Of a stretch of DNA of 64,000 nucleotides, positions 6,041-26,630 are shown one piece after another. A program made the position numbers and the translations under genes. Under the pieces are notes generated by a model. The model was not told where the DNA came from and made no database searches. It worked only from the letters and a program-made list of their open reading frames with translations. Source of the DNA: Clostridia bacterium (GTDB taxonomy: Bacteria; Bacillota; Clostridia; Christensenellales; QALW01); contig JAZRYL010000042.1 in assembly GCA_045600705.1 (NCBI GenBank), forward strand, positions 45,507 to 109,506, given 5' to 3'. The first letter of the stretch is position 1; every line of letters begins with the position of its first letter.

Positions 6041-6049
6041 ATTTTCACC

Positions 6050-6769: not shown

Positions 6770-6788
6770 ATTCTTTCTCCTTTTTTTT

Positions 6789-9451: not shown

Positions 9452-9944
9452 AAATACCTCTCAATCATATACTGTTATGACAGTAAATATAATACCATAC
9501 ATTATATTATATGTAAACATCGTAGTGAAAAAAATATTTTTGTAACATTTTTTACTGCTTGGAACATATATATAGTATGGATGAACAGAAAAATGAATAT
9601 ATATTCACTATATACGCATTTTTTTGAAGACGTGCGGAACGAAAAACGAAAAAATTTTTAAAAAAAGTGTTTGACATAAAATGTACTATAGATATAATAT
9701 GTATATGTAGCTTGAATGCATCGTATTTGGTACGGAAAAGCATTTTTGTGATATAAGCGTATTCCGAAAAAAACGCTTCCACGATTTGCCAAAAACCCCG
9801 ATAAATAGGGCATTATGAACAAATTGTGAACAAAAAATATCTAAATTATTTACAAAAAAATAATTTGAATATTTTTTCAAAAAAATCGAAAAAAATGCTT
9901 GACAAGTATAAAAAACGATGATACAATTCAGGTACAAAATTTAA

Positions 9945-10072
9945 GAACATTGCCAAACCCGTGGAAACATGGGGACGGAAAGCTCAGGAGTCTAAAGCAT
10001 AATATGCAATGACAGTCCGGTTGCAAAATAAAGATTTTTTGCACGGGCTGCTTTTTTATTGCCCGTGGAGAG
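9945..10072 (+). ncRNA. Candidate c-di-GMP-I (GEMM) riboswitch in the 5' leader of the gene at 10082.
   Basis: UUGCCAAACC, then a CCCGUG-GAAA-CAUGGG GNRA hairpin, then GGGACGGAAAGCU, then a hairpin containing UCUAAAGC. This matches the GEMM-I signature (GGCAAACC...GNRA...GGGACGCAAAGCC...CCUAAA), followed by the stable hairpin cacgggc...gcccgtg just before the RBS. Confidence 0.55.
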
Positions 10073-10081
10073 GAGACCATT

Positions 10082-11275: not shown

Positions 11276-11348
11276 TATCTGTTTCTTATCGTAAAAAGAA
11301 CATCTAAACCCATGTGGATATCTTAGGATTTATCTTGTATGAATAATC

Positions 11349-11394
11349 GGCCACACAGGTACACAGTTCTTGTGTGCCTGTGGCTGATTTTTTT
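11349..11394 (+). terminator. Rho-independent terminator.
   Basis: Stem ggccacacaggtacac...gtgtgcctgtggc followed by tttttttt. Confidence 0.65.
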
Positions 11395-11482
11395 CACCGA
11401 ATAAAATCAGAATATTACAGTTGTGTTACACAACGTGAAAAAACATAAAAATTAACGTATTTTATTGAAATGTGGTGCTTTT

Positions 11483-13024
11483 ATGGACGGATTTAAGAAA
11501 TCACTTTTTGGCGGATATAAAAAGAAAGCCGTTGATAACGCTATGAACGAAATCAACGAAAAACTTAAAGATTGCCAGAACGACAACATATATCTTAAAA
11601 GAACTTCCGAGGAGTCTATTTCGAGAGCAACCGAACTTGAAAAGAAACTTCAGGAGTTAAGCGCAGAGAATATCAGACTTCAAAGCGAAACCGACAAGTT
11701 CAAAAATGAGCAGGAATGGTACAAAATCGAAACCGAAAGAGCCCGTAACGAACAGAATGCCATTAGGTCCGAAAAGGAAAGATTCGTTCAGGAACGTGAG
11801 AAATTTGCTCAGGAATTGGAACTTTGCAGACAGGAATTGCAGAACAACAAGCAAGAACTTGCCAAAGCAAAGCAGGACCTTGCACAGGCAAAGCAGGAAC
11901 AGTATTCACGTCCTGCTGAGCGTTCCGAAAACGTGGACGTATATAAGAATATTGAAAAGATTTACAGACGTGCTTACGGTACCGGCCACGAAATCGTTGC
12001 AGAGTCAAAAGAAGTTGCTCAGGAAATGCTCACAAAGGTTGATGAACGTTTCGATAAGACTATGGGCGACTCCACACAGATTGTAAACGATTACCAGGCA
12101 ATTTATGAGGACCTTGAAAAGCTTATTACCGCACTTTCGGCAGATATTTCCTGCGTGCAGAAAAATGCTGATGTGGTAATGAAAAAGGCACAGACGTTCT
12201 TGGGTGTTTATGACGAACTCGGAAGCGTTGTAAAAGCCGCTAAAACAAAGAACGAGGATATGCTTGCAATTTACGAATCGGATATCTCCGAATTTGTTGA
12301 CAGTTGTGCCGTTCAGGCAAAACTTCAGAGCCAGACAGAAACATCCGATTCAACACAGAACGAAGCTGAAAAGCCCGTTGAAACAGTTGAAGCATTTGCC
12401 GAGCAGACCTTGAACGTTGCCGAAAACAATGCTGAAACGGCTCCCGAATCATTTGAACAGAGCAATTTCAGAGTAATTCCGGCACATATTCCGTACGAAA
12501 GCGAACCCGTTCGCCGTGCGGATACCGAATTTAACAATACTCCCGCTTATGCGACAAACGTAAACAATGCACCCGTATATACCGCACATGCAACACCTGT
12601 TTACAGTGCGCCTGCATACACAACGCCGGTAAATAATGCGCCTGCATACGCAGTACCCGCAGCACCGGCAAATAATACACCTGCATACACTGCACCCGCA
12701 ACGCCGGTAAATAATGCGCCTGCTTATACCGAAAATGCTGATTCCACCGTTAATACGGCAGAAAATGTAGCGGCAAATGCGGCAGTAATCAATGCGGTAC
12801 GCATGGCAGTTGCCGATAACAACACACAGGAATCACCTGCACAGAGCGCGGCAGATACCGCTGCACAGAGCGCAGCACCTGCAAATCAGCCGGCTTCTCA
12901 GCCGAGCGCAAACAACAATGCCCGCAGTACTGACTTTACACAGTTCGGCAGAAAGAGCCGTGTTTCCTCAGAGGAACGCAGTGAACTGCTCAGAAAGGCA
13001 CTGCTTAAAAACGGCGGCAGGTAA
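11483..13024 (+). CDS. DivIVA-domain coiled-coil protein with a C-terminal Ala/Pro/Thr/Tyr-rich low-complexity tail.
   Basis: N-terminus MDGFKKSLFGGYKKKAVDNAMNEI matches the DivIVA N-terminal motif. A long heptad-rich coiled coil follows (ELEKKLQELSAENIRLQ...), then degenerate 'NAPAYT/ATPV' repeats. The ORF could also start at 11465. Confidence 0.55.
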   Translation: MDGFKKSLFGGYKKKAVDNAMNEINEKLKDCQNDNIYLKRTSEESISRATELEKKLQELSAENIRLQSETDKFKNEQEWYKIETERARNEQNAIRSEKERFVQEREKFAQELELCRQELQNNKQELAKAKQDLAQAKQEQYSRPAERSENVDVYKNIEKIYRRAYGTGHEIVAESKEVAQEMLTKVDERFDKTMGDSTQIVNDYQAIYEDLEKLITALSADISCVQKNADVVMKKAQTFLGVYDELGSVVKAAKTKNEDMLAIYESDISEFVDSCAVQAKLQSQTETSDSTQNEAEKPVETVEAFAEQTLNVAENNAETAPESFEQSNFRVIPAHIPYESEPVRRADTEFNNTPAYATNVNNAPVYTAHATPVYSAPAYTTPVNNAPAYAVPAAPANNTPAYTAPATPVNNAPAYTENADSTVNTAENVAANAAVINAVRMAVADNNTQESPAQSAADTAAQSAAPANQPASQPSANNNARSTDFTQFGRKSRVSSEERSELLRKALLKNGGR

Positions 13025-13047
13025 TAAAAAAGCCGTTTTTCAAAAAA

Positions 13048-13167
13048 AGTAAAAAGGCAAAACACGTGAAAGCGTGTGACGCAAAGTTGTGAATCTAAAA
13101 CCGAAAGGTCATGATAGTCAAACTGCACTAATAAAGGGTTACTATACTTTATTTGTGCAGTTTTTTC
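13048..13167 (+). ncRNA. Candidate c-di-GMP-I (GEMM) riboswitch with an intrinsic terminator, upstream of the operon that starts at 13203.
   Basis: GGCAAAAC, then an ACACGU-GAAA-GCGUGU GNRA hairpin, then GACGCAAAGUU, then a hairpin with AUCUAAAACC. This is followed by the terminator ctgcac...gtgcag plus tttttt at 13123-13167. Confidence 0.55.
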
Positions 13168-13202
13168 TATTTTTCTGAACTGAAAAGGAGTTTTTTTGCA
13201 TT

Positions 13203-13874
13203 ATGGAAAAAGCAAAACTGTTTTTTCAAAAGGCATTCAAAAGAACAAAAGCAATCGGATTGGTATTGGTGCTTGTGATGCTTACGGGAATGCTTTGTTC
13301 GTGTAACAATGTAAATCCCAATGTCGGCACCGATAAAGAAGAAACGAACAAAAACAATTACACTTCGTCCACATCAAAGGTTGATAAATCGGTTCCGGAA
13401 TATGTCAACGGCGACGACCTTGCCAACCGCAGTTACGAATTAAGTTTTTTGCTTGCGCAAAAGAAGTTCAATTCGCCCAATGAAATAGGTGTAAATGCAC
13501 TTGTACAGTATTCGTTCTGTCACCTTTACTACGATAATTTGATTGAAATTCCCACCAACGGAACTCAGTTGAGAACGGCTACCGTGGATGAAATGGCGGA
13601 TGAAATCAAAAAGGAATTCGGTGACGTTACCACGGATATAAAGACTTCCGATTTGTACAACGGAGCGAAAAACTGCTTCGAAATGTGGGAACCGCCCTAC
13701 GGCAGAGATATTTACTACGATGTTGAAGTATCGGGACAGGGAAACGACACATACAAAGCGAACACAACGTTCTATACGGATTCAACAAAAGAAGAAATTC
13801 TCGGAAGAACGATTTTAACGGTTAAAGACGTAAATCAAAAAATGGTAATACAAAGATTAACATCAAGTAATTAA
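13203..13874 (+). CDS. Putative secreted protein or lipoprotein of unknown function.
   Basis: N-terminus MEKAKLFFQKAFKRTKAIGLVLVLVMLTGMLCSC with Cys shortly after the hydrophobic segment. It is the first gene downstream of riboswitch candidate #2. Confidence 0.5.
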   Translation: MEKAKLFFQKAFKRTKAIGLVLVLVMLTGMLCSCNNVNPNVGTDKEETNKNNYTSSTSKVDKSVPEYVNGDDLANRSYELSFLLAQKKFNSPNEIGVNALVQYSFCHLYYDNLIEIPTNGTQLRTATVDEMADEIKKEFGDVTTDIKTSDLYNGAKNCFEMWEPPYGRDIYYDVEVSGQGNDTYKANTTFYTDSTKEEILGRTILTVKDVNQKMVIQRLTSSN

Positions 13875-13889
13875 ACGAGGTGCGAAACA

Positions 13890-14090
13890 ATGGATGAGTA
13901 TTTATCAATAGAAGAATTAAAGAAAGAAAACCAGGAATTAAAGAACCTGCTTGCAAAAATTCTTAAAGCATACGACCTTGTAAGTGACGAACTTGAAGAG
14001 TATAAAATAAAGATTATGACTCAGCAGAACGCAACCGTAAGCAGTACGGACGACGTTAAAAAACTTTTGGAAAAGTATTCTCGCTTGTAA
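13890..14090 (+). CDS. Small coiled-coil protein (66 aa), unknown function.
   Basis: RBS gaggtg; heptad-rich sequence EELKKENQELKNLLAKILKAY; tightly spaced within the operon. Confidence 0.4.
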   Translation: MDEYLSIEELKKENQELKNLLAKILKAYDLVSDELEEYKIKIMTQQNATVSSTDDVKKLLEKYSRL

Positions 14091-14102
14091 GGTGAAAAAC
14101 TA

Positions 14103-16334
14103 ATGAATAATGACGGACAGTTTTTGCAAAAATTAAAAGAATTCGGAAGCAAAATCAAAAAACAGGGCGACACTCTGATTTATTTTGAACTTGCGGTAGT
14201 TTTGACGGTAATAATCGTTGCCGTAAACTATATGTTCCAATATACCGAGAATAAGATTTCAAACGCCAAATCGATAAAAGCGTGGGAATACGTTTACACC
14301 GACAGTGAAGACGAAAAATTCAACGGCGATTTGAGAAATGCCAATAACCTTGTTCCTATGGAAAAGGAAAAGCTTGGCTCCTATCTTCACGTTAAAGCGA
14401 AAATCGATGCGTCAGACAATGACAGAACACTTATCGTTAATACGGACTATGCACCGATCAAAATAATTTTGAACGGCAAGGAAAGATACAATAACTACTA
14501 CGGAAAAGCAGATTACGTGGGAAATTCGTACAATGCGATAAAAATTCCCGCTTCCTCTTCACCTACGGAAATACGTATTTCGGCACGTCTTCCGTTCTCC
14601 ACTACGTTCACTATGCAGACGGTGGAGGGTGTGGCTCACCCCGACTTTTCGGTGGATGTACACATTATTTTTTCGGCGGTTGTAATCCTGCTTAGCATCG
14701 GATTTTTCGTATTTTCCGCAGTTATTAAGTCCGTTAAGCATAAAAAAATTAAATTTATCGCCGTGTTTGCGGCAATACTTGTTTACGGCATCGCTACGGC
14801 AGCTAAAGCGCTGACGCAGGATACCTATTACGTAAATATGCCGAATTTCTATAACATTTCAGTGGCACTTGAAAACGTAAGTTTGGCTATTATTATGTTC
14901 ATTTCGGCACGGCTTGTTTCAATGAAAAATAAGACTGTTTATGTGCTAATATTCGTCGATATTCTTGCAGCCGCGGCAACCTGCATCTTCACAAACCTGT
15001 GGATAGCAAGAATTTCGTTCATCGCTTCGGATATTCTTATACTGGGCACGCTTCTTTTGATGGTAAAAGAAAACTATCCTATGCTTGACAGACGTGTTCA
15101 GTACGCCAAAATCACATATCTTATGCTTCTTGCTTCGGTGATGATCCATGTTCTCTGCGGTATTATGATGAATACCGTGAGACTCAGAGTAACTTATTAT
15201 TACTGCCAGAATATTATGATGGTCGTATTCCTGTGCTATAACGTATTCGCTCAGATTGAAAAGACCATTGAATTCACCAATCCGGAAGAAATACAGCAAA
15301 AAATCAATCAGTACAATCTGTTTGTTGAAAAAGTTGCCGAACTGATTAAGAATATCATGGCGGTTAATACGGAAAACGAAATCTGCCGTGAGGCTTGCGA
15401 AGGTATTAGTTCTCTTTGCCATGAGATGGGCAAGTTCGATGATGAAAATGAACTGACCGTTACCGCTTTAATTAAGGAAAACGGCGAGTACAGTACCATG
15501 TACAGTATCGGTAATCCCGGAACAATAAACCCCTTTGTTGTGGAAAACCGCTGTCTTCTTGAAGAAAAGTTCTGCATTTATAACGAAACTTACTTCGATA
15601 TGGTTTTCGTTACAGAAAATGACTTCCATATTATTGTTCACGTTGAAAACGTCAAGGACGGACTTGATAATTTCTTCATCAGCATTATGGACACGATTTT
15701 CAGTTGCGTTCGTGCAAAATACATTCGTATGACAGAAGAAGACGTTGACTGCATTGATGCAGATATGCAAATATTCGTAGACCTTGCCGAAAACTGTGAA
15801 AGCGGTACGGCGGACAACAACGAACACCTCGGATCCGTTTGCTTCTATACCAAAACGATTATGGAACAAATGGGTTATCCCGAAGAAATTTGCGAAATCG
15901 TTTCAAAAGCCGCAATGCTTCACGATATCGGAAAAATCGCAATTCCTTTGGAAATCGGCTCAAAGGGCGCTCTGCTTAACGAGGAGGAGCGCACCATTAT
16001 GAAAAAACACACCGACTTCGGATATTCACTTTTGTCGGTGTTCGACAGTGACTTCCTTATGGTCGCTTCCATGATTGCAAAGCACCACCACGAAAAGTAT
16101 GACGGAACCGGCTATGCGGGCATCAAGGGCGAGGATATCAACGAATTCGCACGTATCGTATCCGTTTCCGACGTTATGGACGCACTTATGGCAAAGCGTT
16201 CGTATAAAGACCCGTGGCCCTTTGAAAAGGTTATGGATTATATTAAAGCAGGTTCGGGCAAAATGTTCGACCCCAAGGTAGTAGAAGCAACTCTTGCCTG
16301 CACGGAGATATTCAGAAGTAACACAGAAAAATAA
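14103..16334 (+). CDS. 7TM-receptor (7TMR-DISM-like) membrane sensor with a C-terminal HD-GYP domain; a c-di-GMP phosphodiesterase candidate.
   Basis: One N-terminal TM, an extracytoplasmic domain of about 150 aa, then about 7 TM helices, a cytoplasmic linker, and an HD-GYP domain (HDIGKIAIP ... KHHHEKYDGTGYAG, a GYA variant of GYP). Confidence 0.65.
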   Translation: MNNDGQFLQKLKEFGSKIKKQGDTLIYFELAVVLTVIIVAVNYMFQYTENKISNAKSIKAWEYVYTDSEDEKFNGDLRNANNLVPMEKEKLGSYLHVKAKIDASDNDRTLIVNTDYAPIKIILNGKERYNNYYGKADYVGNSYNAIKIPASSSPTEIRISARLPFSTTFTMQTVEGVAHPDFSVDVHIIFSAVVILLSIGFFVFSAVIKSVKHKKIKFIAVFAAILVYGIATAAKALTQDTYYVNMPNFYNISVALENVSLAIIMFISARLVSMKNKTVYVLIFVDILAAAATCIFTNLWIARISFIASDILILGTLLLMVKENYPMLDRRVQYAKITYLMLLASVMIHVLCGIMMNTVRLRVTYYYCQNIMMVVFLCYNVFAQIEKTIEFTNPEEIQQKINQYNLFVEKVAELIKNIMAVNTENEICREACEGISSLCHEMGKFDDENELTVTALIKENGEYSTMYSIGNPGTINPFVVENRCLLEEKFCIYNETYFDMVFVTENDFHIIVHVENVKDGLDNFFISIMDTIFSCVRAKYIRMTEEDVDCIDADMQIFVDLAENCESGTADNNEHLGSVCFYTKTIMEQMGYPEEICEIVSKAAMLHDIGKIAIPLEIGSKGALLNEEERTIMKKHTDFGYSLLSVFDSDFLMVASMIAKHHHEKYDGTGYAGIKGEDINEFARIVSVSDVMDALMAKRSYKDPWPFEKVMDYIKAGSGKMFDPKVVEATLACTEIFRSNTEK

Positions 16335-16353
16335 TAAGTAATGCTACGGAGAA

Positions 16354-19300
16354 TTGATAATGGATGAAAATTTGAATGGCAATCAGCCGGAATTCACCGC
16401 TTCGACGGACGAAAACGGCGTTGCACCGATAAATGAGCAGACCGCTGAAGGTTTTTCTGCTGAGAACGAGCAGACCGCAGAAGGTCTTTCCGCCGATGGC
16501 GAGCAGGTAGCCGAAAACGGTGTTCCTGCCGATGGCGAACAGGCAGCAAACGGCGTCAATCTTGCGGGAATGCAGGAAAACACCTCCGACCAGGTTGCGT
16601 TCAATCCGGAAGCGGAGCAGGAAAAGAAAACCGAAGATAAGGTGGCAAATGCCAAAAAGCATAAAAAGACCAAGTGGTTTTTTATAATTCCCTTGATATT
16701 TCTTATTCTTATTTCGTTACTGTTCATCATTTGGCAGATAAGTCCCAAAAAGGGTATGAACGTATGCGTTCTTGACAAAACAATACTGACCGTTGAGGAA
16801 AACAACGATATCAATATTGATTCTGTTTACAGAAAGCATCAAGGACTGTTCTGGCTGCTTGAACAGCAGAAGTACGTTTTCCAGAACGGTGACTTCTATG
16901 ATACAAAGCAGGACTATTTCGGACCTATTCTTGACGAAGAAGGTCAGATAAAAGAGGAAAGAGCCCTTAAAGACCTTGATTATGAGCCGGATTTGATGTA
17001 TGTTTCCGACGTGTACGGCGCAGTAAACGACACCTACGGCTATTACGACAAGAACGACGCCAAAAATGCGGGTGTAACTGTCGATGAAATGTCGGTTATT
17101 TCCTACGCATACGAGAGCAATGCCACAATCGTTGCGGAAATGGAACTTTTCAATTCCAACTTGAACAGTTCAATCCACTCTCAGCTTGCGAGTCTTTGCG
17201 GCGTTAAGCCCACCGGCTGGGTAGGAAGATACATTTACGATTTGCAGGATTTCACCGACGTTCCCGACTGGGCTCCTCCCATGTACGAACAGCAGGAAGG
17301 TGTTGAGTGGCAGTTCTCAGGCCCCGGAATTTTGCTTGTTTCCGATGAAAAAATCATCATTCTTGAGCAGAAAACCGACTTTGAATCACGAAATCTTTTG
17401 CAGATTTTCATAACAGACGAATACAAAAAAGAATTTAAGCACTGTGACCGTGTTAATTTCTATAACTGGTTCGAAATCGTAGAGCCGGTGGGAAATACTG
17501 AGGTTATTGCAAACTTTGAATTCGATGTAAACGCAACCGGTATGGAAAAACTTAAAGGCGTGCTCAGGTCGCCTGTATTCTGTGCCGCAACACGCAAGGT
17601 AAGTACGGGAAAGGCTCCCGTTTACTACTTTGCCGCCGACTTTAACGATTACGTTTCGCATCTTAACTACAACAGATTTATGTTTGCAAACACGGTTTAC
17701 AGATGGATAGCATTTGACCGTCAGGGCGATATTACCAACTTCTATTGGAACTTCTATGACCCGCTGATGACGAAAATTCTTTCCTATGTGAACACCCGTG
17801 AAATTATCAAAAATCCCGACGAAAACGCCGCTAATGTTGACAGAACAACGCATTTCAGCGTAAGCGACAACGGATTCAGAATAAAGGGCGAAGACGATTG
17901 GGAAAAAATATCGTTTAATGCGGTAAGCATAAACGCCCACGAACCGGGCAAGAGTACCTATTCACGAAATTACGGTTTTTACGAAAACCTTGTCCGTGAA
18001 ACGGTTACAATGGGTGCGAACTGTATTTACGCAAAGGATATTCTTCCGCCCGAGTTTTACCGTGCAATATACGCAAACAATTCTTCCGAAAAAGCAAAAA
18101 AGGTGTACTTGATACAAAACATCACTCCTCCGGACGAAATTTCTCAGGAGGAATGGCAGAAAAAAGCGGAAGCGGCAGTTAATGTTCTTAACGGAAAAGG
18201 CTCTTATTCCATCGGAAACACCGACGACGCAATAAGATACTTCATTGACACTTCCAACTTCGTTGCGGCGATAACCTTCGACGGCTTCGACCCGCAGCAG
18301 CAACTTTCATATAGCGGTGAGTTCGCTTCCGGCGAAGGTCAGACCGGCTATCCTGCGTTTATTTACGATACTATTCAAAAGTACGCCAAGGACGAATTCG
18401 ATATGCAGGTTCCCATCGGAATAAATCTTCCGGCAGGGCTTGTTAAGGGAACCGGACTTGAGGGCGAAAACGCAATAAGCATCAGCGATATTATCACTGA
18501 CAGCGAATGTAAAAACAATTATTCCTTTACGGTTATTTCATATAAGGACACTAACGGACTTGTTACCGAGCAGGGCGAAAAAATCACTACTGACGGTGAC
18601 AAAATGGGTGGCGCATTCGCACTTTTCCGTGAGGCCACAAACGGACGCTATATGGTAAATAACATCGTGTTCTCGGCAAATTGCGGAACGGGTAACGACG
18701 ATAAAGTAACCGAAAAGCAACAAGGTCAGCAGACGGTTGCCGCATTAAGAATGGCAAAGGGCTCCGGCGCACTGTGTGCGATTGCTTCCGACCTTAACGA
18801 CGACTGGTCGGAACTTTCCGATAGTATGTATGCGTTCACATCGCCTTTGGAAAACAACAGTATGTGGCAGAACGTGGCAGACCCTGCACAGACAACGGGC
18901 TTTATCGCACTCGACCCCGAAGAACCCGAAAAAGTCGGAATAAATATGACCGATGACGACCGTGTGCAGATGCTTTCACTGTCGTCCAACGAAGGATATT
19001 TCTATCTGACCGCACAGTTGCTTACGGATATTGACTACGAAAAAGAAAAACTGTTTATCGGTATCGACACATATCAGCGAAACGACGGTGAATACTACTA
19101 TTCAAAGGAATATACACCTACATCGCTTTCCGGAATGGAATTCGTGCTTGCCTTTGACAGTAAACAGCAGGCAGGGTTGTACGTTACTTCAACATACGAC
19201 AAAAAAGCGGGAAGATATGCTACAAAAGAAAGTTATACCGGTGATTACGGTCTTGTTTCGCAACTGACCTACGGCGGTTTCTCCTCGGTTGACAATCAGT

Positions 19301-19623
19301 TCTATCAGTCAGGTTCTACGATTTACATTCGTATTCCTTGGGCGTGGCTGAACGTTACCGACCCGTCACAGAAAATCGTTATCAACAACGACGGTGAAAT
19401 TTCCGGTCAGGCAAAAACGGTCACCACAAACGGTGCAGTCGTTTCCGTACTGATTGCAGATAAGCAAACAAAGGACCAGTTGTATCTGTTCCCCGAAACA
19501 AAACAGGAACCGTCCTACAAAACATACAAGTGGGCAACGTGGGAAAAGGTTTCCTATTCAATGAGAGAAAAAGAAAGTTTTACAATTCTTAAAAACTACT
19601 TCAGTAAAGAAAACGGTAATTAG
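16354..19623 (+). CDS. Large membrane-anchored extracytoplasmic protein (1089 aa). It is a paralog of the two downstream GH-like proteins and a putative polysaccharide-processing component.
   Basis: Acidic N-terminal tandem repeat (NEQTAEGFSAENEQTAEGLSADGEQVAENG...), one TM (WFFIIPLIFLILISLLFIIW), then a region homologous to genes 22178 and 24400 (e.g. ...GANCIYAKDILPPEFYRAIYAN...KVYLIQNI versus ...NANCVRIYTLMPPQFYQAL...NVYLFQGIW). It also shares the C-terminal motif IYIRIPWAWLNVTDPS. Confidence 0.55.
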   Translation: MIMDENLNGNQPEFTASTDENGVAPINEQTAEGFSAENEQTAEGLSADGEQVAENGVPADGEQAANGVNLAGMQENTSDQVAFNPEAEQEKKTEDKVANAKKHKKTKWFFIIPLIFLILISLLFIIWQISPKKGMNVCVLDKTILTVEENNDINIDSVYRKHQGLFWLLEQQKYVFQNGDFYDTKQDYFGPILDEEGQIKEERALKDLDYEPDLMYVSDVYGAVNDTYGYYDKNDAKNAGVTVDEMSVISYAYESNATIVAEMELFNSNLNSSIHSQLASLCGVKPTGWVGRYIYDLQDFTDVPDWAPPMYEQQEGVEWQFSGPGILLVSDEKIIILEQKTDFESRNLLQIFITDEYKKEFKHCDRVNFYNWFEIVEPVGNTEVIANFEFDVNATGMEKLKGVLRSPVFCAATRKVSTGKAPVYYFAADFNDYVSHLNYNRFMFANTVYRWIAFDRQGDITNFYWNFYDPLMTKILSYVNTREIIKNPDENAANVDRTTHFSVSDNGFRIKGEDDWEKISFNAVSINAHEPGKSTYSRNYGFYENLVRETVTMGANCIYAKDILPPEFYRAIYANNSSEKAKKVYLIQNITPPDEISQEEWQKKAEAAVNVLNGKGSYSIGNTDDAIRYFIDTSNFVAAITFDGFDPQQQLSYSGEFASGEGQTGYPAFIYDTIQKYAKDEFDMQVPIGINLPAGLVKGTGLEGENAISISDIITDSECKNNYSFTVISYKDTNGLVTEQGEKITTDGDKMGGAFALFREATNGRYMVNNIVFSANCGTGNDDKVTEKQQGQQTVAALRMAKGSGALCAIASDLNDDWSELSDSMYAFTSPLENNSMWQNVADPAQTTGFIALDPEEPEKVGINMTDDDRVQMLSLSSNEGYFYLTAQLLTDIDYEKEKLFIGIDTYQRNDGEYYYSKEYTPTSLSGMEFVLAFDSKQQAGLYVTSTYDKKAGRYATKESYTGDYGLVSQLTYGGFSSVDNQFYQSGSTIYIRIPWAWLNVTDPSQKIVINNDGEISGQAKTVTTNGAVVSVLIADKQTKDQLYLFPETKQEPSYKTYKWATWEKVSYSMREKESFTILKNYFSKENGN

Positions 19624-19640
19624 AAAACCGTCACAAAGGG

Positions 19641-20732
19641 GTGAATTTATTGCATTACGAGTTAATCGCAATTTTATGCGTTTTGTTCTGCCTGTTCATA
19701 CTTGCGCTGGAATATCTGTGGCTCGCCTCCCTTGCAAAAAGGCAGGAGGACGATGCGAAAAAGTACGATACCATTTCGCAAAAAGTGTACAGCATCGTTG
19801 AAGGAATTTTGTACAGTCCTTCCGAGGCAAGCAGAAAAAACGAAATAAAAGAACTTAAAAAAATAATGAAGGATGACGTTCGCACCTTTGAAATCATCAA
19901 TGCTCAGCTTTGCTTCTGGGACGAATACGGCGAAGATGATGCATTCGTGAACAAGCAGGAAGTCATTGATGCGGTTTACGAAGAACTTAAACCTATCGAA
20001 CTTTATGCAAAAATTCTTAAGAAAAAGGATAAGTATAAAATCGGTTACGCCTGCCGCCGACTTGCTGACTTCGATGCTTACGATTACCTTAACGACATTT
20101 ACGACCTTTCCAAATCAAAGAACCGTAACGTTTCGTACAGTGCGGCAATGGCACTTTCAAGACTCGGCTACACTGACGGCGTTGCCGAATACATTCTTGA
20201 CATTCAGGACGACAAAAAGTATTCCTGCCGTATCGTAAACGAAATTTTCGATACATTCAGTTCCGACCGTGCAGAACTTGCCGAAATTCTTTTGGAAAAA
20301 TGCAACAATTATATGAAAGCGGTTATTATCAAGGCCATTGCGGCATACAAGTTCGAACAGTTCGAAAAAATGTACATTGACGGAACGGTCAGCAAGGATA
20401 TGCAGATGCGTATTGCCTGCATTAAAGCCCTTGGCTATCTGGCAAAACGTGAAAACGAACACATTCTTGCAATTGCGGCAAAGGATAAGGACTGGGTAGT
20501 TCGCTGCGCCGCCATTGACGGACTGAAACGTCTTGATACCGTAACTGCAATCAACTGCGTTAAAGAAGGAGTCAAAGACAAGGAGTGGTGGGTTCGCCAG
20601 AATGCGGCACGTGCCCTTGCCGATATGAACGTAAACATTTCCGTAATCGAAGACATTTTGAGCGGATACGACAAATATGCTTCCGATGCGGCAAAATATG
20701 CACTTTACCGCCATGTAAACCTTAATCACTAA
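19641..20732 (+). CDS. Membrane-anchored HEAT-repeat (PBS-lyase-like) protein.
   Basis: N-terminal TM (LIAILCVLFCLFILALEYLWL), then HEAT-like repeats (DKDWVVRCAAIDGLKRL; EWWVRQNAARALADM). Confidence 0.55.
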   Translation: MNLLHYELIAILCVLFCLFILALEYLWLASLAKRQEDDAKKYDTISQKVYSIVEGILYSPSEASRKNEIKELKKIMKDDVRTFEIINAQLCFWDEYGEDDAFVNKQEVIDAVYEELKPIELYAKILKKKDKYKIGYACRRLADFDAYDYLNDIYDLSKSKNRNVSYSAAMALSRLGYTDGVAEYILDIQDDKKYSCRIVNEIFDTFSSDRAELAEILLEKCNNYMKAVIIKAIAAYKFEQFEKMYIDGTVSKDMQMRIACIKALGYLAKRENEHILAIAAKDKDWVVRCAAIDGLKRLDTVTAINCVKEGVKDKEWWVRQNAARALADMNVNISVIEDILSGYDKYASDAAKYALYRHVNLNH

Positions 20733-20768
20733 AGTATGATTCCACAATCATGGAAAGAATAGGTAACT

Positions 20769-22181
20769 ATGAGTTTTATTACTATTGTACGAGCATTTAT
20801 ATCATTCTTTAACTATTTCTGTATGGCATTTACATTGCTGCTCAGCGTGATATATATTGTTCAGTTGATAATTTCATTATTTTCCGTAACGAAAAACGAC
20901 AAATACCGTCAGTCCAACGACTTCGGACGGTACGTTGACAGTGAAAATATTCTTCCTATTTCGCTTCTTATACCTGCGTATAACGAACAGGAAAATATCG
21001 TGCAGAACATTAAATCGCTTATGACCATTGACTATCCCGAATTTGAAATATGCGTTGTAAACGACGGTTCTACGGACAGAACTCACGACCTTATCGTTGA
21101 GGCGTTCCACCTTTATAAAATTGAATCTTCCTTTAAGACCTCCATACCCACGCAGGAGGTTCGAGGCATTTATTACAATACCGAATATCCCAACCTTATC
21201 TACGTTGATAAGGAAAACGGCGGTAAATCCGATGCTCTTAATGCAGGAATAAACGTTTCATCGTATCCGCTGTTCGCCTGCCTTGATGCGGACTCCCGTA
21301 TCGAGCCGGACGCTCTGCTTAAACTTTCAACGGAATTCTTGAAAAACTCCGATACTATCGTTGCCGGCGGACTTGTTCGTATTGCCAACGGCTTCAAAAT
21401 CAAGGACGGCGTAGTCAGCGAATTTACAATGCCGCCCAAAATGGTTGAACGTTTCCAAATCGTTGAATATTACCGTTCTTTCCTTTCGGGAAGAGTAGGA
21501 TGGGGCGCCGCTAACGCAATGCTTATCGTTTCGGGCGCATTCGGTGTATTCAGAAAATCCTCCGTTATCGAGGTAGGCGGCTACAAGACGAATACCATCG
21601 GTGAGGATATGGAAATTGTCGTTCGTTTGCACAAATATTACAGAAGTCACCATAAAAAATACAAGGTTATTTTCTGTGAAGACTCGGTTTGCTGGACTCA
21701 GGGCCCCATGTCAATGAAGGATATCCGAAGCCAGCGCCGTCGTTGGCAGATAGGTCTGCTTGATACACTTTTAACACACAAAACAATGTTCTTTAACATC
21801 CGCTACGGCATTGTAGGTTTGCTTGCAATTCCGTACAACTGGATATTCGAGCTTCTCGGCGCCGTTATCGAGGTTTTGGGTTATGCGCTCATACCGTTCT
21901 CGCTGATAATGGGCGAATTGAATATGTTCTTCTTCATAATTTACTTCCTGCTTGCGGTGCTTTTGGGTATTATCCTTTCAATGGGAAGTCTTGTTCTTGA
22001 ACAGTTCACGAGAAAATCCATTATGACCGCAAAACAGTGCCTTATGCTTTCAATCTATACGATTCTTGAAAACTTCGGCTACCGTCAAGCGATTACAATT
22101 TTCCGTGTTGAGGGAATACTTAAATACCGTAAACTTCGCAGAACGTGGGGTAAGATTCAAAGAAAGGGTATTGAACAATGA
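20769..22181 (+). CDS. Family-2 processive beta-glycosyltransferase (synthase-type; PgaC/IcaA/BcsA/NodC-like).
   Basis: N-terminal TM, then LLIPAYNEQENI...VVNDGSTDRT, GGKSDALNAG, DADS (DxD), and the QxxRW motif SQRRRWQIG, followed by a C-terminal TM bundle. No PilZ domain is present. Confidence 0.8.
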   Translation: MSFITIVRAFISFFNYFCMAFTLLLSVIYIVQLIISLFSVTKNDKYRQSNDFGRYVDSENILPISLLIPAYNEQENIVQNIKSLMTIDYPEFEICVVNDGSTDRTHDLIVEAFHLYKIESSFKTSIPTQEVRGIYYNTEYPNLIYVDKENGGKSDALNAGINVSSYPLFACLDADSRIEPDALLKLSTEFLKNSDTIVAGGLVRIANGFKIKDGVVSEFTMPPKMVERFQIVEYYRSFLSGRVGWGAANAMLIVSGAFGVFRKSSVIEVGGYKTNTIGEDMEIVVRLHKYYRSHHKKYKVIFCEDSVCWTQGPMSMKDIRSQRRRWQIGLLDTLLTHKTMFFNIRYGIVGLLAIPYNWIFELLGAVIEVLGYALIPFSLIMGELNMFFFIIYFLLAVLLGIILSMGSLVLEQFTRKSIMTAKQCLMLSIYTILENFGYRQAITIFRVEGILKYRKLRRTWGKIQRKGIEQ

Positions 22182-24403
22182 AAAAAATTGCAATTTCAGT
22201 TATCGCAACTCTTTTGGTACTCGTATTTCTTGCCCAAATCGGCGTTCTTGAAAGATTCGGAATTCACGGAATTTCCGTTTTCACCAAGAAAAAAGAAGAC
22301 ACTTCTTCTTCGTCGTCGGAAAATACCGCAGAAACATATATTGATTCCACTACAAATGTAAGTTACCGCTTCAAAACAAAGGGTGACTACTTCTATCAGT
22401 ATGTGGACGGCGATTGGGAACAGCTTTTTATGCGCGGCGTAAACATCGGTGCTACCGAACCCGCTTTGTTCCCCGGTGACCTTACCATTTCCTACGACAG
22501 TTATCTTCGCTGGTTCGGCTATATCAGCGAAATGAACGCAAACTGCGTTCGAATTTACACGCTTATGCCTCCGCAGTTCTATCAGGCATTGGCGGATTTT
22601 AACAAAAGTACAAAAAAGAACGTTTACCTTTTCCAAGGAATTTGGGTAAACGAAGAAGATATTGAACGTCTTTCCGATGCGTATGCGGAAAACGAAAAAA
22701 TTCTTAACGATTTCACCGCCGACGCAATAAACCTGGTGGACGTTATTCACGGCAACGCAAAAGTGGCGGAAAGCCCCGGTGAAGCATCGGGTACCTACAC
22801 CGCCGACGTTTCAAAATGGCTCGCAGGGTGGATTATCGGTATCGAATGGGACCCGAACTTCGTTATGAACACGGACCAGCAGCACCCGGACAAGAAAGAT
22901 TTTGACGGTGAGTATCTGTACACACAGACCGCCTCACCTTTCGAAGCGTTCCTTTGTCGAGTGGGCAATTCAATGATAAAGTACGAAACGGATACCTATA
23001 ATTTCCAAACTCCGCTTGCTTTCACAAACTGGATTACTACCGACCCGCTTACACACCCCAACGAACCCCACTTCGATGAGGATAAGGCAACGGTAAATAC
23101 AGAAAACGTTAAGTACAGAGATTTTGGACCCGGTATGTTTGCTTCGTACCACATTTACCCGTACTATCCCGACAGTCTTAACTATCAGACAGACTATCTT
23201 CAGTACATTGACGAGGACGGCAACGTAAACACCTACCTTGCTTATCTTGAAGACCTTAAGCTTGCACACACTATGCCTATCATCGTTGCCGAATTCGGTA
23301 TTCCCACCTCACGAGGCTTGGGCCATAAGAGTGTTATGGGTTACGACCAGGGCGGCGTTGATGAGATGGACCAAGGCGAAATGATTATAAATATGCTCAG
23401 GTATATTGAAGATACTAAATATGCGGGAGCAATTATTTTCACATGGCAGGATGAATGGTTTAAGAGAACGTGGAACAACGTTATGTACGATATCGCTGAC
23501 CGCCGTCCTTTCTGGACGAACATTCAGACAACGGAACAGTGCTTCGGCGTAATGGCATTCGACCCCGGTCAGGAAAAGTGCGTTTGCTACGTTGACGGCG
23601 AAACAAACGATTGGAATTCATTTTCACCTGTGGTTTCAACGTCGCAGGGCGACCTTTATGTTACAAGCGACGAAAGATACGTGTATTTTATGGTGGATGC
23701 CAAGGACTACGACTTCGAAAACGATACGCTTGTCATTCCCGTAAACACCATTGCAGACCAGGGAAACAGTGCGGCAACCGCTTACGGTGCACAGTTCGAC
23801 AAGGATGCCGACTTCCTTATTTACATCAACGGCAAGGAAGATTCCCATATCTTCGTTGACAGATATTACGATGCTTTCAACTACTATTTCCTTAACTCCA
23901 AAAAGCTCAGCGATATTCCCGAGGAAGAAAATGCCAACGTTAAAAACAGCGGTAATTTCGACATTATGCGCCTCTGCTACGGCTATAACCTTACCGTAAA
24001 GGGAACGGGCGAGGTGGTTACCGATAAGGCTTACGAAACGGGCAAACTTCTTTTCGGAAACGGCAATCCCGATGCGGAAAATTACAGGTCGTTAAGTGAT
24101 TTCTGCTACAAAAACGGCAAACTTGAAATAAGAATTCCGTGGCAGCTTCTTAACATTATGGACCCGTCGGGCAAAAAGCAGATTTCCGATTTCTGGCAGA
24201 CGCAGGTTATTTCGCCCCAGGATTACACGGAATTCAATATGGGCTTTGGGTACAGAAGCAACACAAGCACCGATACGCTTCAGGTTTCCCTTTCCGGCTC
24301 CTACGACTACAAAGCGTGGAATATGCCCACGTGGCACGAGCGTCTTAAACCTGCATATTATCAGTTGCAGGAATATCTTTCAAAATTCGTGGAGGAACAA
24401 TGA
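22178..24403 (+). CDS. Secreted or membrane-anchored clan GH-A-like TIM-barrel protein (putative glycoside hydrolase of unknown family), 741 aa.
   Basis: Its start overlaps the stop of the upstream gene (ATGA), and it has an N-terminal TM or signal. MNANCVRIYT resembles the clan-A GFNAVRIP motif. IIVAEFGIPTSRG looks like a clan-A nucleophile motif (xxxxEFG). Conserved C-terminal motif LEIRIPWQLLNIMDPSG. Confidence 0.5.
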   Translation: MKKIAISVIATLLVLVFLAQIGVLERFGIHGISVFTKKKEDTSSSSSENTAETYIDSTTNVSYRFKTKGDYFYQYVDGDWEQLFMRGVNIGATEPALFPGDLTISYDSYLRWFGYISEMNANCVRIYTLMPPQFYQALADFNKSTKKNVYLFQGIWVNEEDIERLSDAYAENEKILNDFTADAINLVDVIHGNAKVAESPGEASGTYTADVSKWLAGWIIGIEWDPNFVMNTDQQHPDKKDFDGEYLYTQTASPFEAFLCRVGNSMIKYETDTYNFQTPLAFTNWITTDPLTHPNEPHFDEDKATVNTENVKYRDFGPGMFASYHIYPYYPDSLNYQTDYLQYIDEDGNVNTYLAYLEDLKLAHTMPIIVAEFGIPTSRGLGHKSVMGYDQGGVDEMDQGEMIINMLRYIEDTKYAGAIIFTWQDEWFKRTWNNVMYDIADRRPFWTNIQTTEQCFGVMAFDPGQEKCVCYVDGETNDWNSFSPVVSTSQGDLYVTSDERYVYFMVDAKDYDFENDTLVIPVNTIADQGNSAATAYGAQFDKDADFLIYINGKEDSHIFVDRYYDAFNYYFLNSKKLSDIPEEENANVKNSGNFDIMRLCYGYNLTVKGTGEVVTDKAYETGKLLFGNGNPDAENYRSLSDFCYKNGKLEIRIPWQLLNIMDPSGKKQISDFWQTQVISPQDYTEFNMGFGYRSNTSTDTLQVSLSGSYDYKAWNMPTWHERLKPAYYQLQEYLSKFVEEQ

Positions 24404-26559
24404 AAAAACTGATTTCGGCTTTGCTTGCGGCTCTTGTGATTTTATCGGCAACGGGCTGCAACAGTCCGCTTGTTAATCCGGATGAAAAAAAGAATAACAA
24501 CGGTAATTATCCCTCGCCGGAATCGTCGGTCGCAGCACCTAACGGCTACGGTGTCGATTTTGATTTTTTCACACATTCCAACGGATATTTCTACAAAAAC
24601 GGTGAGAATACGGAACTTACCTACATTCGAGGCGTGAATATGGGACTTTCCGAAGCCACCACGGATTTGGCAAATCCCGATATCACCTACGATACGTTCA
24701 GCGAATGGTTCTCGCAAATCAAGGAAATGAACGCCAATACGGTGCGTGTCTTTTCCGTTATGAACCCGGATTTCTATAATGCGCTTTACGATTTCAACAA
24801 GGAACATTCCGATTCTCCGCTTTACCTTATTCAGGGAATATGGTTTTCCGAGGACCTTATGTACGAACTGACCGATGCTCTGGAAAGCGATGAAATTCTT
24901 ATTTCCGCGTTCAAGCGCTCTGTTACTGAAACAATCGACATTGTTCACGGAAACAGCAACTATACCACCTACGGCAAAATTTCGCCGGCTATTTACAAAA
25001 AAGACGTTTCAAAGTATTGCATAGGCTATATTCTCGGCCTTGAATATCCTGCCGAATTCGTTATTGAAACGAATGCTTCGCACCCGGATAAAAAGGAATT
25101 TTCGGGAACATATCTTTATACCGACACCGGCGCATCGCCGTTTGAATATTTTCTGTGCGACGTTGGCGAAACGCTTATCGCATACGAAACAGACAATTAT
25201 TCCCACCAGACACCCATTGCGTTTCTTAACTGGCAGACGCTTGACACCATAAGACATTCCAACGAGCCCTTTGTGGACGAGGAAGATGCGGTCAGCGTAA
25301 ATACCGAAAATATTATGAAAACGTCAATGTACGTTCCAGGACTTTTTGCCGCAGTAGATATTTACCCCTATTACCCGGAATTTATGAATCACCAAGGCGA
25401 ATATCTTGAATACCGTGACGAAAACGGCAACAGTGACACTTACAGAGCGTATCTTAATGACCTTAAAAAGCAGTATTCCGTGCCGGTTCTTGTTGCCGAA
25501 TACGGACTTCCCACATCAAGAGCCGTTGCACATCTTTCGGTTAACGGCTACAATCAAGGCGGATTGACCGAGCAGGAGCAGGGCGAATACTGCGCACAAA
25601 TGACAAGAAGCATTGCGCTTGAAGGCTATTGCGGCGGACTTCTTTTCTCGTGGCAGGACGAATGGTTCAAAAGAACGTGGAATACCACAATGTACTATCC
25701 CGAAAATCCCTCGGAAAGAACGCACAATCTGTCCTCCGCCGAGCAGAGTTACGGAATTGTAAGTTATGACGTTTCAAAATACTATCCCGACGGTGATTTT
25801 TCTGAATGGACTGATTTGGATTTCATTCAAAACACCAACGTAAAGGTTCGCTACGATGCGGAATATATGCACGTCTACGTGGAACTTCCGTCGAATTTCA
25901 ATTTTGAAAAGGATAAATACTACGTTCCCATCTCGGTTTTGGGCGCAGGAAGCACCGAATGTAAAGATAAAAATCTTTCGTTTGATAAAAATTGCGATTT
26001 CCTGCTTGAAATAAACGGCGAACAAAATACCCGAATACTGTGCGACGAATACGTGGATTTGTTCAAATTCAAGTATTACGTGCAGAAAAACGTGTTCGGA
26101 AACGTGGCAAGCCTTGCGGATAATACCGGCAAATACAACAAAATTCAGATGATTGTTGCAAACGAAATGTACTTGCCCGACGATGACAAAACTATTCCTC
26201 CTCAGTCCTACGAAACGGGACTTCTCAGATACGGCATCGCCAATCCCGATTCGGAACAGTTTAATTCTCAGGCAGATTTCTATTATAAGGACGGCGAGGT
26301 GGAAATTCGCATTGCGTGGCACTTGCTTAACGTTGCGAATGCTCGGCTGAGTATGTGCATTGACAAGTTCACCGGCGATGAAGTCACTTTCACGGGCTTT
26401 AAGGACATTTATATCGGCAGCGGCACAAGCGGCGAAATATCGTTAAATCCCACATACTTCGAAGCGCCTAAGTTCGTTAAGGTGAAAAAACGTCTTAAAG
26501 CTTCATATAAATATATGAAAGACGCCTTTGCCGAACTGAAAGAAAATATCAGCAACTGA
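24400..26559 (+). CDS. Lipoprotein paralog of the previous GH-A-like protein, 719 aa.
   Basis: Start overlaps the stop of the upstream gene. Lipobox LSATGC. About 40-45% identity to the 22178 product over its length (IQGIWFSEDLMYELTDALESDEIL...; VLVAEYGLPTSRA; VEIRIAWHLLNVAN). Confidence 0.5.
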   Translation: MKKLISALLAALVILSATGCNSPLVNPDEKKNNNGNYPSPESSVAAPNGYGVDFDFFTHSNGYFYKNGENTELTYIRGVNMGLSEATTDLANPDITYDTFSEWFSQIKEMNANTVRVFSVMNPDFYNALYDFNKEHSDSPLYLIQGIWFSEDLMYELTDALESDEILISAFKRSVTETIDIVHGNSNYTTYGKISPAIYKKDVSKYCIGYILGLEYPAEFVIETNASHPDKKEFSGTYLYTDTGASPFEYFLCDVGETLIAYETDNYSHQTPIAFLNWQTLDTIRHSNEPFVDEEDAVSVNTENIMKTSMYVPGLFAAVDIYPYYPEFMNHQGEYLEYRDENGNSDTYRAYLNDLKKQYSVPVLVAEYGLPTSRAVAHLSVNGYNQGGLTEQEQGEYCAQMTRSIALEGYCGGLLFSWQDEWFKRTWNTTMYYPENPSERTHNLSSAEQSYGIVSYDVSKYYPDGDFSEWTDLDFIQNTNVKVRYDAEYMHVYVELPSNFNFEKDKYYVPISVLGAGSTECKDKNLSFDKNCDFLLEINGEQNTRILCDEYVDLFKFKYYVQKNVFGNVASLADNTGKYNKIQMIVANEMYLPDDDKTIPPQSYETGLLRYGIANPDSEQFNSQADFYYKDGEVEIRIAWHLLNVANARLSMCIDKFTGDEVTFTGFKDIYIGSGTSGEISLNPTYFEAPKFVKVKKRLKASYKYMKDAFAELKENISN

Positions 26560-26590: not shown

Positions 26591-26630
26591 CAGCCCCCTG
26601 CGGATTGAACGCAGGGGGCTTTGCTGTTTT
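26591..26630. terminator. Bidirectional rho-independent terminator between convergent genes.
   Basis: An 11-bp GC-rich stem agccccctgcg / cgcagggggct flanked by an A-rich 5' side and ttgctgtttt on the 3' side. Confidence 0.7.

Follow-up and report, generated by a model that had tools for sequence, protein, structure and literature searches.

What does an operon make that is headed by a cyclic di-GMP (c-di-GMP) riboswitch and fits none of the described exopolysaccharide (EPS) operons, and how does the second messenger act on it? The operon in question consists of eight plus-strand open reading frames (ORFs), here called P1 to P8, in a Clostridia bacterium (assembly GCA_045600705.1, contig JAZRYL010000042.1). 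The window is the whole stretch of DNA analysed, 64,000 nucleotides in length, and positions are counted from its first letter. Synthase-dependent EPS systems are the main output of c-di-GMP signalling; to our knowledge, few of them have been described in Gram-positive bacteria (Pss/Yda, the Gram-positive Pel, and Ccs). Our favoured answer, held with moderate confidence, is that the locus encodes a c-di-GMP-controlled synthase-dependent EPS system of an uncharacterised type, coupled to a riboswitch-controlled adhesin-like protein.

The original prediction, made from the letters of this DNA, had described a tightly packed operon at 13048–26559. The eight ORFs lie where it had placed them, with gaps of 12–36 nt, 4-nt stop/start overlaps at P6/P7 and P7/P8, and a closing terminator that has T-rich tails on both strands (Table 1). 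The unit had nevertheless been drawn too narrowly, as the functional unit reaches upstream to ~9899 and takes in a further riboswitch and the secreted protein U1.

The GT2 synthase and its proposed membrane partners

P6 is the central enzyme of the operon. Pfam assigns it to glycosyltransferase family 2 (GT2; PF00535, PF13641, PF13632, and PF03142; GT2 at 2.4e-24) and detects no PilZ domain. The motifs DGSTD, DAD, GED, and QRRRW lie between N- and C-terminal transmembrane (TM) segments, which gives P6 the full set of marks of a processive membrane GT2 synthase (D, DxD, GED, QxxRW, and TM flanks). The protein aligns with BcsA (4hg6; residues 48–365, ~320 residues) at E=4e-6. Its best NCBIfam model is PgaC_IcaA (TIGR03937), with 125 bits against a cut-off of 422.3. 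The second-best NCBIfam match is an 'XrtG-associated glycosyltransferase', which is echoed by an exosortase (EpsH-like) gene located between the P7-like gene and GT2 in Clostridium paraputrificum (L075, 12406–12969).

The HEAT-repeat protein P5 matches HEAT_2 at 4.4e-23; this assignment and that of a PilZ-less GT2 with QRRRW agree with what had been predicted. A pattern scan that took one genome from each species confirmed at least 568 P7 relatives, and 80 loci were kept for gene content (cited by their L numbers). In these loci, P5 homologs always adjoin GT2, and HEAT is fused to GT2 in L047, L058, and L061, making up the N-terminal ~480 residues of the long proteins. The Heliophilum fasciatum protein (L061) additionally carries P4N at the GT2 C-terminus. 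P4N, the domain that precedes the barrel of P4, is a well-folded α/β domain of ~360 residues in the P4 model; in Acetobacterium and some Clostridium loci, a gene of its own encodes it (373 aa). Since HEAT-GT2 and HEAT-GT2-P4N polypeptides exist, P5, P6, and P4N may well be subunits of one membrane complex, with P5 as a probable synthase subunit.

The three large proteins P4, P7, and P8 had been called mutual paralogs resembling glycoside hydrolases (GHs) of clan GH-A, and our comparisons bear this out. Aligned over the full length, P7 and P8 have 36% identity (E=2e-159), and the C-terminal ~600 residues of P4 share 21% identity with P7 (E=1e-12). The AlphaFold model of P7, built from an 83-sequence alignment, has a predicted local distance difference test (pLDDT) score of 94.2 and a predicted template modelling (pTM) score of 0.90. 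Its fold matches are the GH157 laminarinase, GH5 mannanases, GH2, GH72, GH17, GH158, and PslG (Foldseek E=2e-13). The AlphaFold2 (AF2) model of P4 (pLDDT 83, pTM 0.85) also finds GH157 at the top (Foldseek 2e-9). The modelled fold is the (β/α)8 barrel of clan GH-A.

In the P7 model, E223 ('GIEW') stands at the end of β4, after the strand 215–220, and E372 ('AEFG') ends the β7 strand 368–373. These positions are the canonical catalytic sites of clan GH-A. All P7 orthologs (82/82) and all P8 orthologs (41/41) retain the two glutamates, and P7 and P8 are predicted to be active enzymes. We also considered the glutamate of 'NEP' (P7 295–297) as the acid/base; it is present in only 40 of 83 sequences and lies after β5, and E223 at the end of β4 fits better. 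The P4 of the window has neither catalytic glutamate. Among its 49 orthologs, both are gone in 35, one is gone in 11, and both are present in 3. Because the glutamates are absent here and at least one is gone in 46 of the 49 orthologs, P4 is predicted to carry a pseudo-hydrolase domain. The motifs NANCVRIY and VAEFG, previously taken as common to all three proteins, hold for P7 and P8, but P4 has GANCIYAK and VFSAN instead. The description of 'three GH-like giants' is therefore right as to the GH-A folds and incomplete for P4, a putative pseudo-hydrolase fused to the unrelated conserved P4N.

The relation of P7 to known enzymes is remote. A single-sequence search (phmmer) of the P7 family against the PDB returned nothing at E≤1. 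The 83-sequence family profile reaches GH157 (9fz9) only at E=0.0012 over ~110 residues, and in this alignment P7 E372 pairs with E224 of LaGH157, which is mutated in the substrate complex 9g4n. By fold comparison, identity to GH157 is 15%. The P7 family is best described, from such alignments, as a distant relative of GH157 and not a member. P1, P2, P4, P7, and P8 have no Pfam or NCBIfam match, and public names of P7 relatives are 'hypothetical protein' or the mislabel 'family 2 glycosyl transferase'.

The closest folds are degradative (GH157 laminarinase, GH5 mannanases, and GH2), which raises the idea that the product is not biofilm EPS. The operon might make a cell-wall glycopolymer or capsule, or its GH-A proteins might act on dietary or host glycans, with the GT2 in an unrelated envelope role. 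The locus is carried by Oscillospirales that degrade fibre in rumen and gut, a GH16 gene lies beside the Acetobacterium cluster (L064 16149–17165, just downstream of GT2), and a 1996-aa GH140-like protein adjoins the operon in the window. We regard these possibilities as unlikely. The GH-like gene is linked to HEAT and GT2 genes across distant Firmicutes, and the pseudo-GH is fused to P4N, which is itself fused to GT2 in Heliophilum. All three paralogs are N-terminally membrane-tethered, not freely secreted or cellulosomal, and no transporter or sugar-catabolic gene is found in P1–P8 (ORFs and Pfam). In addition, every synthase-dependent EPS system known to us has a dedicated hydrolase or lyase (BcsZ, PelA, PgaB, AlgL, or PslG).

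Two riboswitches and the adhesin-like protein U1

Two c-di-GMP-I (GEMM-I) aptamers are found upstream of P1. Riboswitch 2, at the head of the operon, matches Rfam RF01051 with 73.2 bits (E=1.8e-12), and riboswitch 1 with 69.9 bits (E=1.2e-11); the gathering score is 35, and both aptamers cover model positions 1–87 of 87. Among 43 related aptamers, pairing holds in 96.2% of cells, against 24–40% in slid controls, and compensatory changes on both sides occur at 19/22 aptamer pairs. The covariance match, the covariation, and a terminator hairpin followed by T6 support the earlier claim that a GEMM-I aptamer with its own terminator heads the operon.

At riboswitch 1, a terminator hairpin at 10013–10051 is followed by a U-run. 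Its 5′ arm, CAGUCCGGUUGCAAAA (from 10013), is the whole 3′ strand of the aptamer helix P2 (not to be confused with protein P2), so that aptamer and terminator are mutually exclusive. At riboswitch 2, the terminator stem spans 13123–13160, A-U pairs extend it to 13120–13163, and T6 occupies 13161–13166. This hairpin overlaps the 3′ strand of helix P2 (13118–13124) and the conserved GC after it; within the core stem, the shared bases are C13123 and U13124, to which three A-U pairs and that GC are added. The arrangement is kept in the orthologous P1 leaders of L007/8, L031, L032, L034, L037, L039, L043, L044, and L052, where the terminator starts within the conserved GGCUGC of the aptamer and has its stem base beside the U-tract. 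As the 5′ arm of the terminator equals or overlaps the 3′ strand of the aptamer, a ligand-stabilised aptamer should block termination. The hairpin geometry thus favours antitermination by c-di-GMP, that is, ON switches. The antitermination proposed in the original prediction fits the overlap here and in the orthologous leaders, the ON direction being read from this geometry.

If the elements were OFF switches instead, the operon would be made at low c-di-GMP and would serve as a matrix-remodelling or dispersal module, for which a phosphodiesterase and two predicted active hydrolases are encoded. The terminator of riboswitch 2 shares just 2 to 5 nt with the aptamer helix, and its upper stem of 12 bp lies outside the aptamer and could still form with ligand bound; ON versus OFF is here a matter of geometry only. 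A GEMM-I OFF switch is known in Clostridioides difficile (Cd1, upstream of flgB). The Paenibacillus-type GEMM-I leaders (L050, L051, L053, L056, L057, and L060; ~8560–8950) have a platform unlike the Oscillospirales one, with the terminator CACAGUUCGG...CCGGACUGUG located 35–63 nt past the aptamer; its arms resemble the P2 strand of the aptamer. Three points speak against OFF switches: the mutually exclusive design of riboswitch 1, the start of the terminator inside GGCUGC in orthologous leaders, and the nature of the central enzyme, a synthase co-regulated with adhesin-like proteins. Synthase and adhesin functions normally belong to high c-di-GMP. We consider OFF switches improbable and retain ON switches in what follows.

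The sigma-70-like promoter ahead of riboswitch 1 is the sole promoter-like site on the plus strand in 9700–13300, and transcripts of riboswitch 2 may depend on read-through from upstream. In L007 and L008, the riboswitch before P1 abuts the U1 stop codon. Because of this abutment, and because no good promoter precedes riboswitch 2 in the window, the two switches may act in series on one transcript.

Riboswitch 1 is followed by U1, for which Pfam gives no match. In nearly every Oscillospirales locus, a U1 homolog immediately precedes P1 or follows P8, and GEMM-I is found ~55 nt upstream of U1 in every U1 context fetched. Elsewhere, the C-terminal module of U1 is fused to pAdhesive_15 ('collagen-binding'), Beta_helix_3, or Flg_new (Listeria-Bacteroides repeat) heads, which suggests that U1 is an adhesin-like surface-attachment module with swappable adhesins. 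We notice a terminator-like hairpin after U1, at 11354–11382 (+). In L081, the closest relative, a further GEMM-I at 9500–9598 (-) heads a divergent 553-aa pAdhesive_15 gene (7780–9441 (-)), and the two riboswitches of that locus point away from each other between adhesin-type genes. U2, between the two riboswitch units, also has no Pfam match and lacks conservation with the cluster: its homologs near clusters are weak or rare, and L081 has a 204-aa coiled-coil gene at its position. The remaining features of the locus are listed in Table 1, among them P1 and P8, whose lipobox-like N-termini make them plausible lipoproteins.

Table 1. Features of the riboswitch-controlled locus, in order along the window.
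Feature	Position	Strand	Description	Basis
Promoter	9899–9927	+	Sigma-70-like, TTGACA-17-TACAAT with TG extension, ahead of riboswitch 1	11/12 consensus matches
Riboswitch 1 aptamer	9942–10028	+	c-di-GMP-I	RF01051
U1	10082–11275	+	Secreted, 397 aa; signal peptide, Pro/Thr/Ala linker, conserved ~200-aa C-terminal module	Sequence
U2	11465–13024	+	519 aa, coiled-coil, low-complexity	Between two riboswitch units
Riboswitch 2 aptamer	13046–13130	+	c-di-GMP-I, head of putative EPS operon	RF01051 and covariation
Riboswitch 2 terminator	13120–13166	+	Intrinsic terminator	Sequence and fold
P1	13203–13874	+	223 aa, membrane-anchored or lipoprotein-like	N-terminal hydrophobic segment with Cys
P2	13890–14090	+	66 aa, predicted coiled-coil	ORF and sequence
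P3	14103–16334	+	Membrane sensor with C-terminal HD-GYP	HD_5, hydropathy
P4	16354–19623	+	1089 aa; disordered N-terminus, one TM, P4N (~130–490), predicted degenerate GH-A barrel and β domain (~490–1089)	AF2 model, Foldseek
P5	19641–20732	+	363 aa, N-terminal TM anchor and cytoplasmic HEAT repeats	HEAT_2
P6	20769–22181	+	470 aa, membrane-embedded processive GT2 synthase	Pfam GT2, motifs
P7	22178–24403	+	741 aa, N-terminally anchored extracytoplasmic GH-A (β/α)8 barrel and C-terminal β domain	Predicted active, E223/E372
P8	24400–26559	+	719 aa, lipoprotein-like P7 paralog, predicted active	Identity to P7
Operon-end terminator	26592–26620	.	Bidirectional intrinsic terminator before convergent gene	11-bp stem, 9 GC pairs

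Distribution, signalling, and proposed mechanism

An exhaustive profile search with the P7 family yields 1,847 clusters when grouped at 50% identity, of which 693 reach E≤1e-30. The relatives are metagenome-assembled genomes of Oscillospirales. Half of the loci kept (40 of 80), all of Oscillospirales/Ruminococcaceae type, contain P3-P4-P5-P6-P7 in the order of the window; P1 is present in 35 of these full clusters and P8 in 33. Orthologs of the 66-aa P2 occur in L001–L008 and L081–L089. The order is P7-P4-P5-P6 in Paenibacillus, Cohnella, and Peribacillus, and in Clostridium, Acetobacterium, and their relatives P7 is followed by P4N or a signalling gene, then by P5 and P6. Judged by gene content across these lineages, the conserved core is the GH-A-like protein, P4N, the HEAT protein, and the GT2; P1, P2, P3, and P8 are lineage-specific.

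The riboswitches recur as well. GEMM-I lies ≤1 kb upstream of P1 or P3 in 14/40 full clusters. Outside Oscillospirales, six core operons of Paenibacillus/Peribacillus and the Clostridiaceae locus L077 begin with it, and in Clostridium-type clusters the GH-like and HEAT genes are separated by one that encodes GGDEF-REC or REC. After extension, L081 reads riboswitch-U1-(small gene)-P1 and onwards, and L083, L084, L088, and L089 read riboswitch-U1-riboswitch-U1 paralog-P1-P2-P3-P4; in most relatives, the sole riboswitch precedes U1. Since GEMM-I or GGDEF/REC genes recur across lineages and the 43 aptamers covary, the system as a whole has a conserved link to c-di-GMP, which is no accident of the window.

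A shared ~298-aa protein follows GEMM-I in L050 (8880–9839), L051, L053, L056, L057, L060, and L077 (8780–9658). These first genes of the Paenibacillus/Peribacillus operons and L077 form one family (hhalign E=7e-80) without a Pfam family, and the motifs HLDVEPY and IMAYRD suggest another barrel-type enzyme. Homology to P1 or U1 was rejected at hhalign probabilities of ≤9%.

The signalling protein of the window is P3. By hydropathy, it has one N-terminal TM segment, a ~130-aa extracytoplasmic domain, ~7 TM segments, a cytoplasmic linker, and the HD-GYP domain. The predicted HD-GYP output is confirmed by Pfam (HD_5/HD, PF13487 at 8.6e-25) and by an alignment with the active enzyme PmGH (4mcw, E=1.2e-36), with HDIGK and HHEKYDGTGY kept. 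The 7TMR-DISM label has to be withdrawn: residues 1–560 have no Pfam 7TMR-DISM_7TM or 7TMR-DISMED2 match even at E≤5, and the resemblance is one of general layout only, an extracytoplasmic domain followed by ~7 TM segments. P3 is likely an active c-di-GMP phosphodiesterase, to go by its motifs. As these catalytic motifs are kept, the negative feedback suggested earlier is a plausible proposal rather than a result: co-transcribed behind an ON switch, P3 would counteract the signal that releases it. Its sensor domain suggests that such feedback would be conditional.

The riboswitch may also be one layer of control among others. The synthase would then be activated by c-di-GMP through a non-PilZ receptor as well (P5, the GT2 as in PgaC/PgaD, or P3 as a trigger enzyme), and P3 would tune a local pool. 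The in-cluster signalling gene varies, with HD-GYP in Oscillospirales versus GGDEF-REC or REC in Clostridium types, which is typical of local modules, and P5 is cytoplasmic and always beside or fused to GT2. The PilZ-less synthases BgsA and PgaCD, which bind c-di-GMP in other ways (PMC10374906), provide precedents. On the other hand, no c-di-GMP-binding motif or domain is found in P5 or P6 (Pfam and NCBIfam), and the Paenibacillus core operons have a riboswitch only, with no signalling protein. We hold this second layer to be possible but doubtful. Even so, the earlier formula of control at the RNA level rather than through PilZ goes too far, since a receptor at the protein level (the HEAT protein, the GT2, or the HD-GYP protein) may exist, and Clostridium-type clusters include REC or GGDEF genes.

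In the scheme that we infer for an ON-switched EPS system, transcription would start at the promoter at 9899–9927. Both riboswitches would be ON switches, in which the folded, ligand-bound aptamer prevents termination: riboswitch 1 would admit RNA polymerase to U1, a secreted protein whose C-terminal module bears adhesin heads in relatives, and riboswitch 2 would gate P1–P8. The PilZ-less P6 would polymerise a β-linked hexose or N-acetylhexosamine (HexNAc) polymer and translocate it through the membrane, working with the cytoplasmic HEAT protein P5 and the extracytoplasmic P4N of P4. The presumably dead GH-A barrel of P4 probably binds or guides the nascent chain, and outside the cell the membrane-tethered P7 and P8 may trim the polymer, release it, or transglycosylate it. 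Finally, P3 would lower c-di-GMP, perhaps on a local scale and in response to an external signal, and would thereby close a negative feedback loop.

Several observations weigh against this scheme, in addition to the small overlap at riboswitch 2. No convincing promoter lies directly 5′ of riboswitch 2 in the scanned region 9700–13300. In 23/40 full clusters, there is no riboswitch within the fetched flank; in all of these, U1 directly precedes the cluster on the same strand, and a riboswitch before U1 is confirmed in few of their lineages. The GYP of P3 is changed to GYA, the sole change in its HD-GYP signature. A P4N profile finds noise only in the PDB, and the fold search with full-length P4 is dominated by barrel matches. 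The hints at the polymer conflict, as the GT2 is weakly of the poly-N-acetylglucosamine (PNAG) type and the GH folds are those of β-1,3-glucanases and mannanases. No description of this gene set was found in the open-access full-text literature, a search limited to open-access texts.

We tentatively extend the proposal beyond the window, with somewhat less than even confidence. The combination of a GH-A-like protein, P4N, a HEAT protein, and a PilZ-less GT2 may represent an undescribed, Firmicutes-wide, synthase-dependent polysaccharide secretion system, with a new GH family that includes a pseudo-enzyme 'co-polymerase' paralog. In Oscillospirales, serial riboswitches would release the adhesin after one checkpoint, then the polymer and its HD-GYP brake after two, as c-di-GMP rises. 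The locus points to another widespread system, present in at least 568 species-level genomes and represented by ~1,850 GH-like clusters at 50% identity. Its carriers include abundant rumen and gut Oscillospirales, soil Firmicutes, and cultivable Paenibacillus, Clostridium, and Acetobacterium. The accessory proteins outside Pfam and NCBIfam offer a candidate new GH family and a possible partnership of pseudo-enzyme and synthase. The locus would also show in nature how c-di-GMP can gate an operon for a polysaccharide synthase at the RNA level, sometimes by two riboswitches in series, and the role of the polymer could concern aggregation or attachment to fibre and host surfaces.

Surroundings of the locus and known systems

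Downstream of the operon, a convergent gene (26649–32639 (-)) encodes the 1996-aa protein, with DUF5060 and an apiosidase-like (GH140-type) domain; it is apparently not conserved with the cluster. A REC-GGDEF-EAL protein follows ~6.5 kb downstream (33031–34707 (+)). Since homologs are found close to the cluster in L011, L014, L015, L018, L020, and L049, this protein is a candidate for a cognate enzyme of c-di-GMP turnover. Further on, a 2084-aa ORF (51704–57958 (+)) with the Listeria-Bacteroides repeat (Flg_new) is probably a large surface protein, and the same repeat is the N-terminal head of some U1-family members. Just upstream of riboswitch 1, a 793-aa fusion of GT2 and polysaccharide pyruvyl transferase (7070–9451 (-)) is not linked to the cluster in relatives. 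A ZMP/ZTP riboswitch (6848–6945 (-), 47.4 bits) precedes IMP cyclohydrolase-like and AICARFT/IMPCHase genes (4856–6847 (-)), with a formate-tetrahydrofolate ligase gene (1858–3534) nearby, an ordinary purine/folate context.

Among known systems, the operon had been set apart from Pel, Psl, PNAG, Bcs, Pss, and alginate. This separation holds, and extends to Yda, with no BcsB, GH8, GGDEF, or PilZ match and with PgaC_IcaA below its cut-off. Like PssA-E/PssZ of Listeria monocytogenes and YdaJKLMN of Bacillus subtilis, it is a Firmicute synthase-dependent EPS operon, on our reading, with a PilZ-less IcaA/BcsA-like GT2. It shares with them large extracytoplasmic partners, a dedicated hydrolase, and dependence on c-di-GMP (PMC4125290, PMC5422440). 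In Listeria, PssD, the counterpart of YdaN, is a BcsB ortholog (PMC4125290); PssE and YdaK are degenerate-GGDEF I-site receptors, and the associated hydrolase is GH8 (PMC4125290, PMC5422440). YdaJKLMN is driven by SigB (PMC13274460). Orthology with ydaJKLMN/Pss was rejected, as P1–P8 contain no BcsB, GGDEF, or GH8 match; the distinction was drawn from family matches and from the published account of PssD. Unlike Pss/Yda, the operon combines its GT2 with members of an unclassified GH-A family, P4N, and a HEAT protein, and c-di-GMP acts, at least, through riboswitches.

The PNAG synthases (PgaCD/PgaB, IcaADBC) resemble the operon in having a GT2 without PilZ and accessory membrane partners, and PgaC/IcaA is the closest of the NCBIfam models to P6. 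PgaB has a (β/α)-barrel hydrolase domain. The identity of P6 as a PNAG synthase was rejected on its score, far below the cut-off, and no IcaD, PgaD, deacetylase, or porin homolog is found in P1–P8 by Pfam. In contrast to the PNAG systems, the GH-like proteins here belong to clan GH-A and not to GH153 or GH20.

A processive membrane GT2 with QxxRW, control by c-di-GMP, and a cognate endoglycanase are also features of BcsAB/BcsZ, clostridial Ccs, Romboutsia RiGT2, and Sinorhizobium BgsBA. A Bcs cellulose system was rejected, since Pfam finds no PilZ, BcsB, GH8, or GH5 in P1–P8. The mixed-linkage glucan synthase RiGT2, a BcsA-like protein of 637 aa, has a PilZ domain (PMC10374906), and it was rejected as the same system on these grounds.

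As for the hydrolases, identity between the P7 family and GH157 of Labilibaculum antarcticum (PDB 9fz9/9g4n) or other clan GH-A members, including PslG, is 13–15%. Unlike these enzymes, the P7 family has an extra C-terminal β domain with the motif EIRIPW.LLN, is membrane-tethered, belongs to a synthase operon, and includes one paralog that is a predicted pseudo-enzyme.

Surface adhesins and pili controlled by GEMM riboswitches are known from C. difficile and Bacillus thuringiensis. As in those species, GEMM lies directly upstream of surface genes here, namely U1 and, in L081, the pAdhesive_15 gene. The present locus differs in that the C-terminal module of U1 belongs to no Pfam family, and in that the riboswitch-adhesin unit is physically joined to an operon for a polysaccharide synthase, in many cases with a further riboswitch placed in series.

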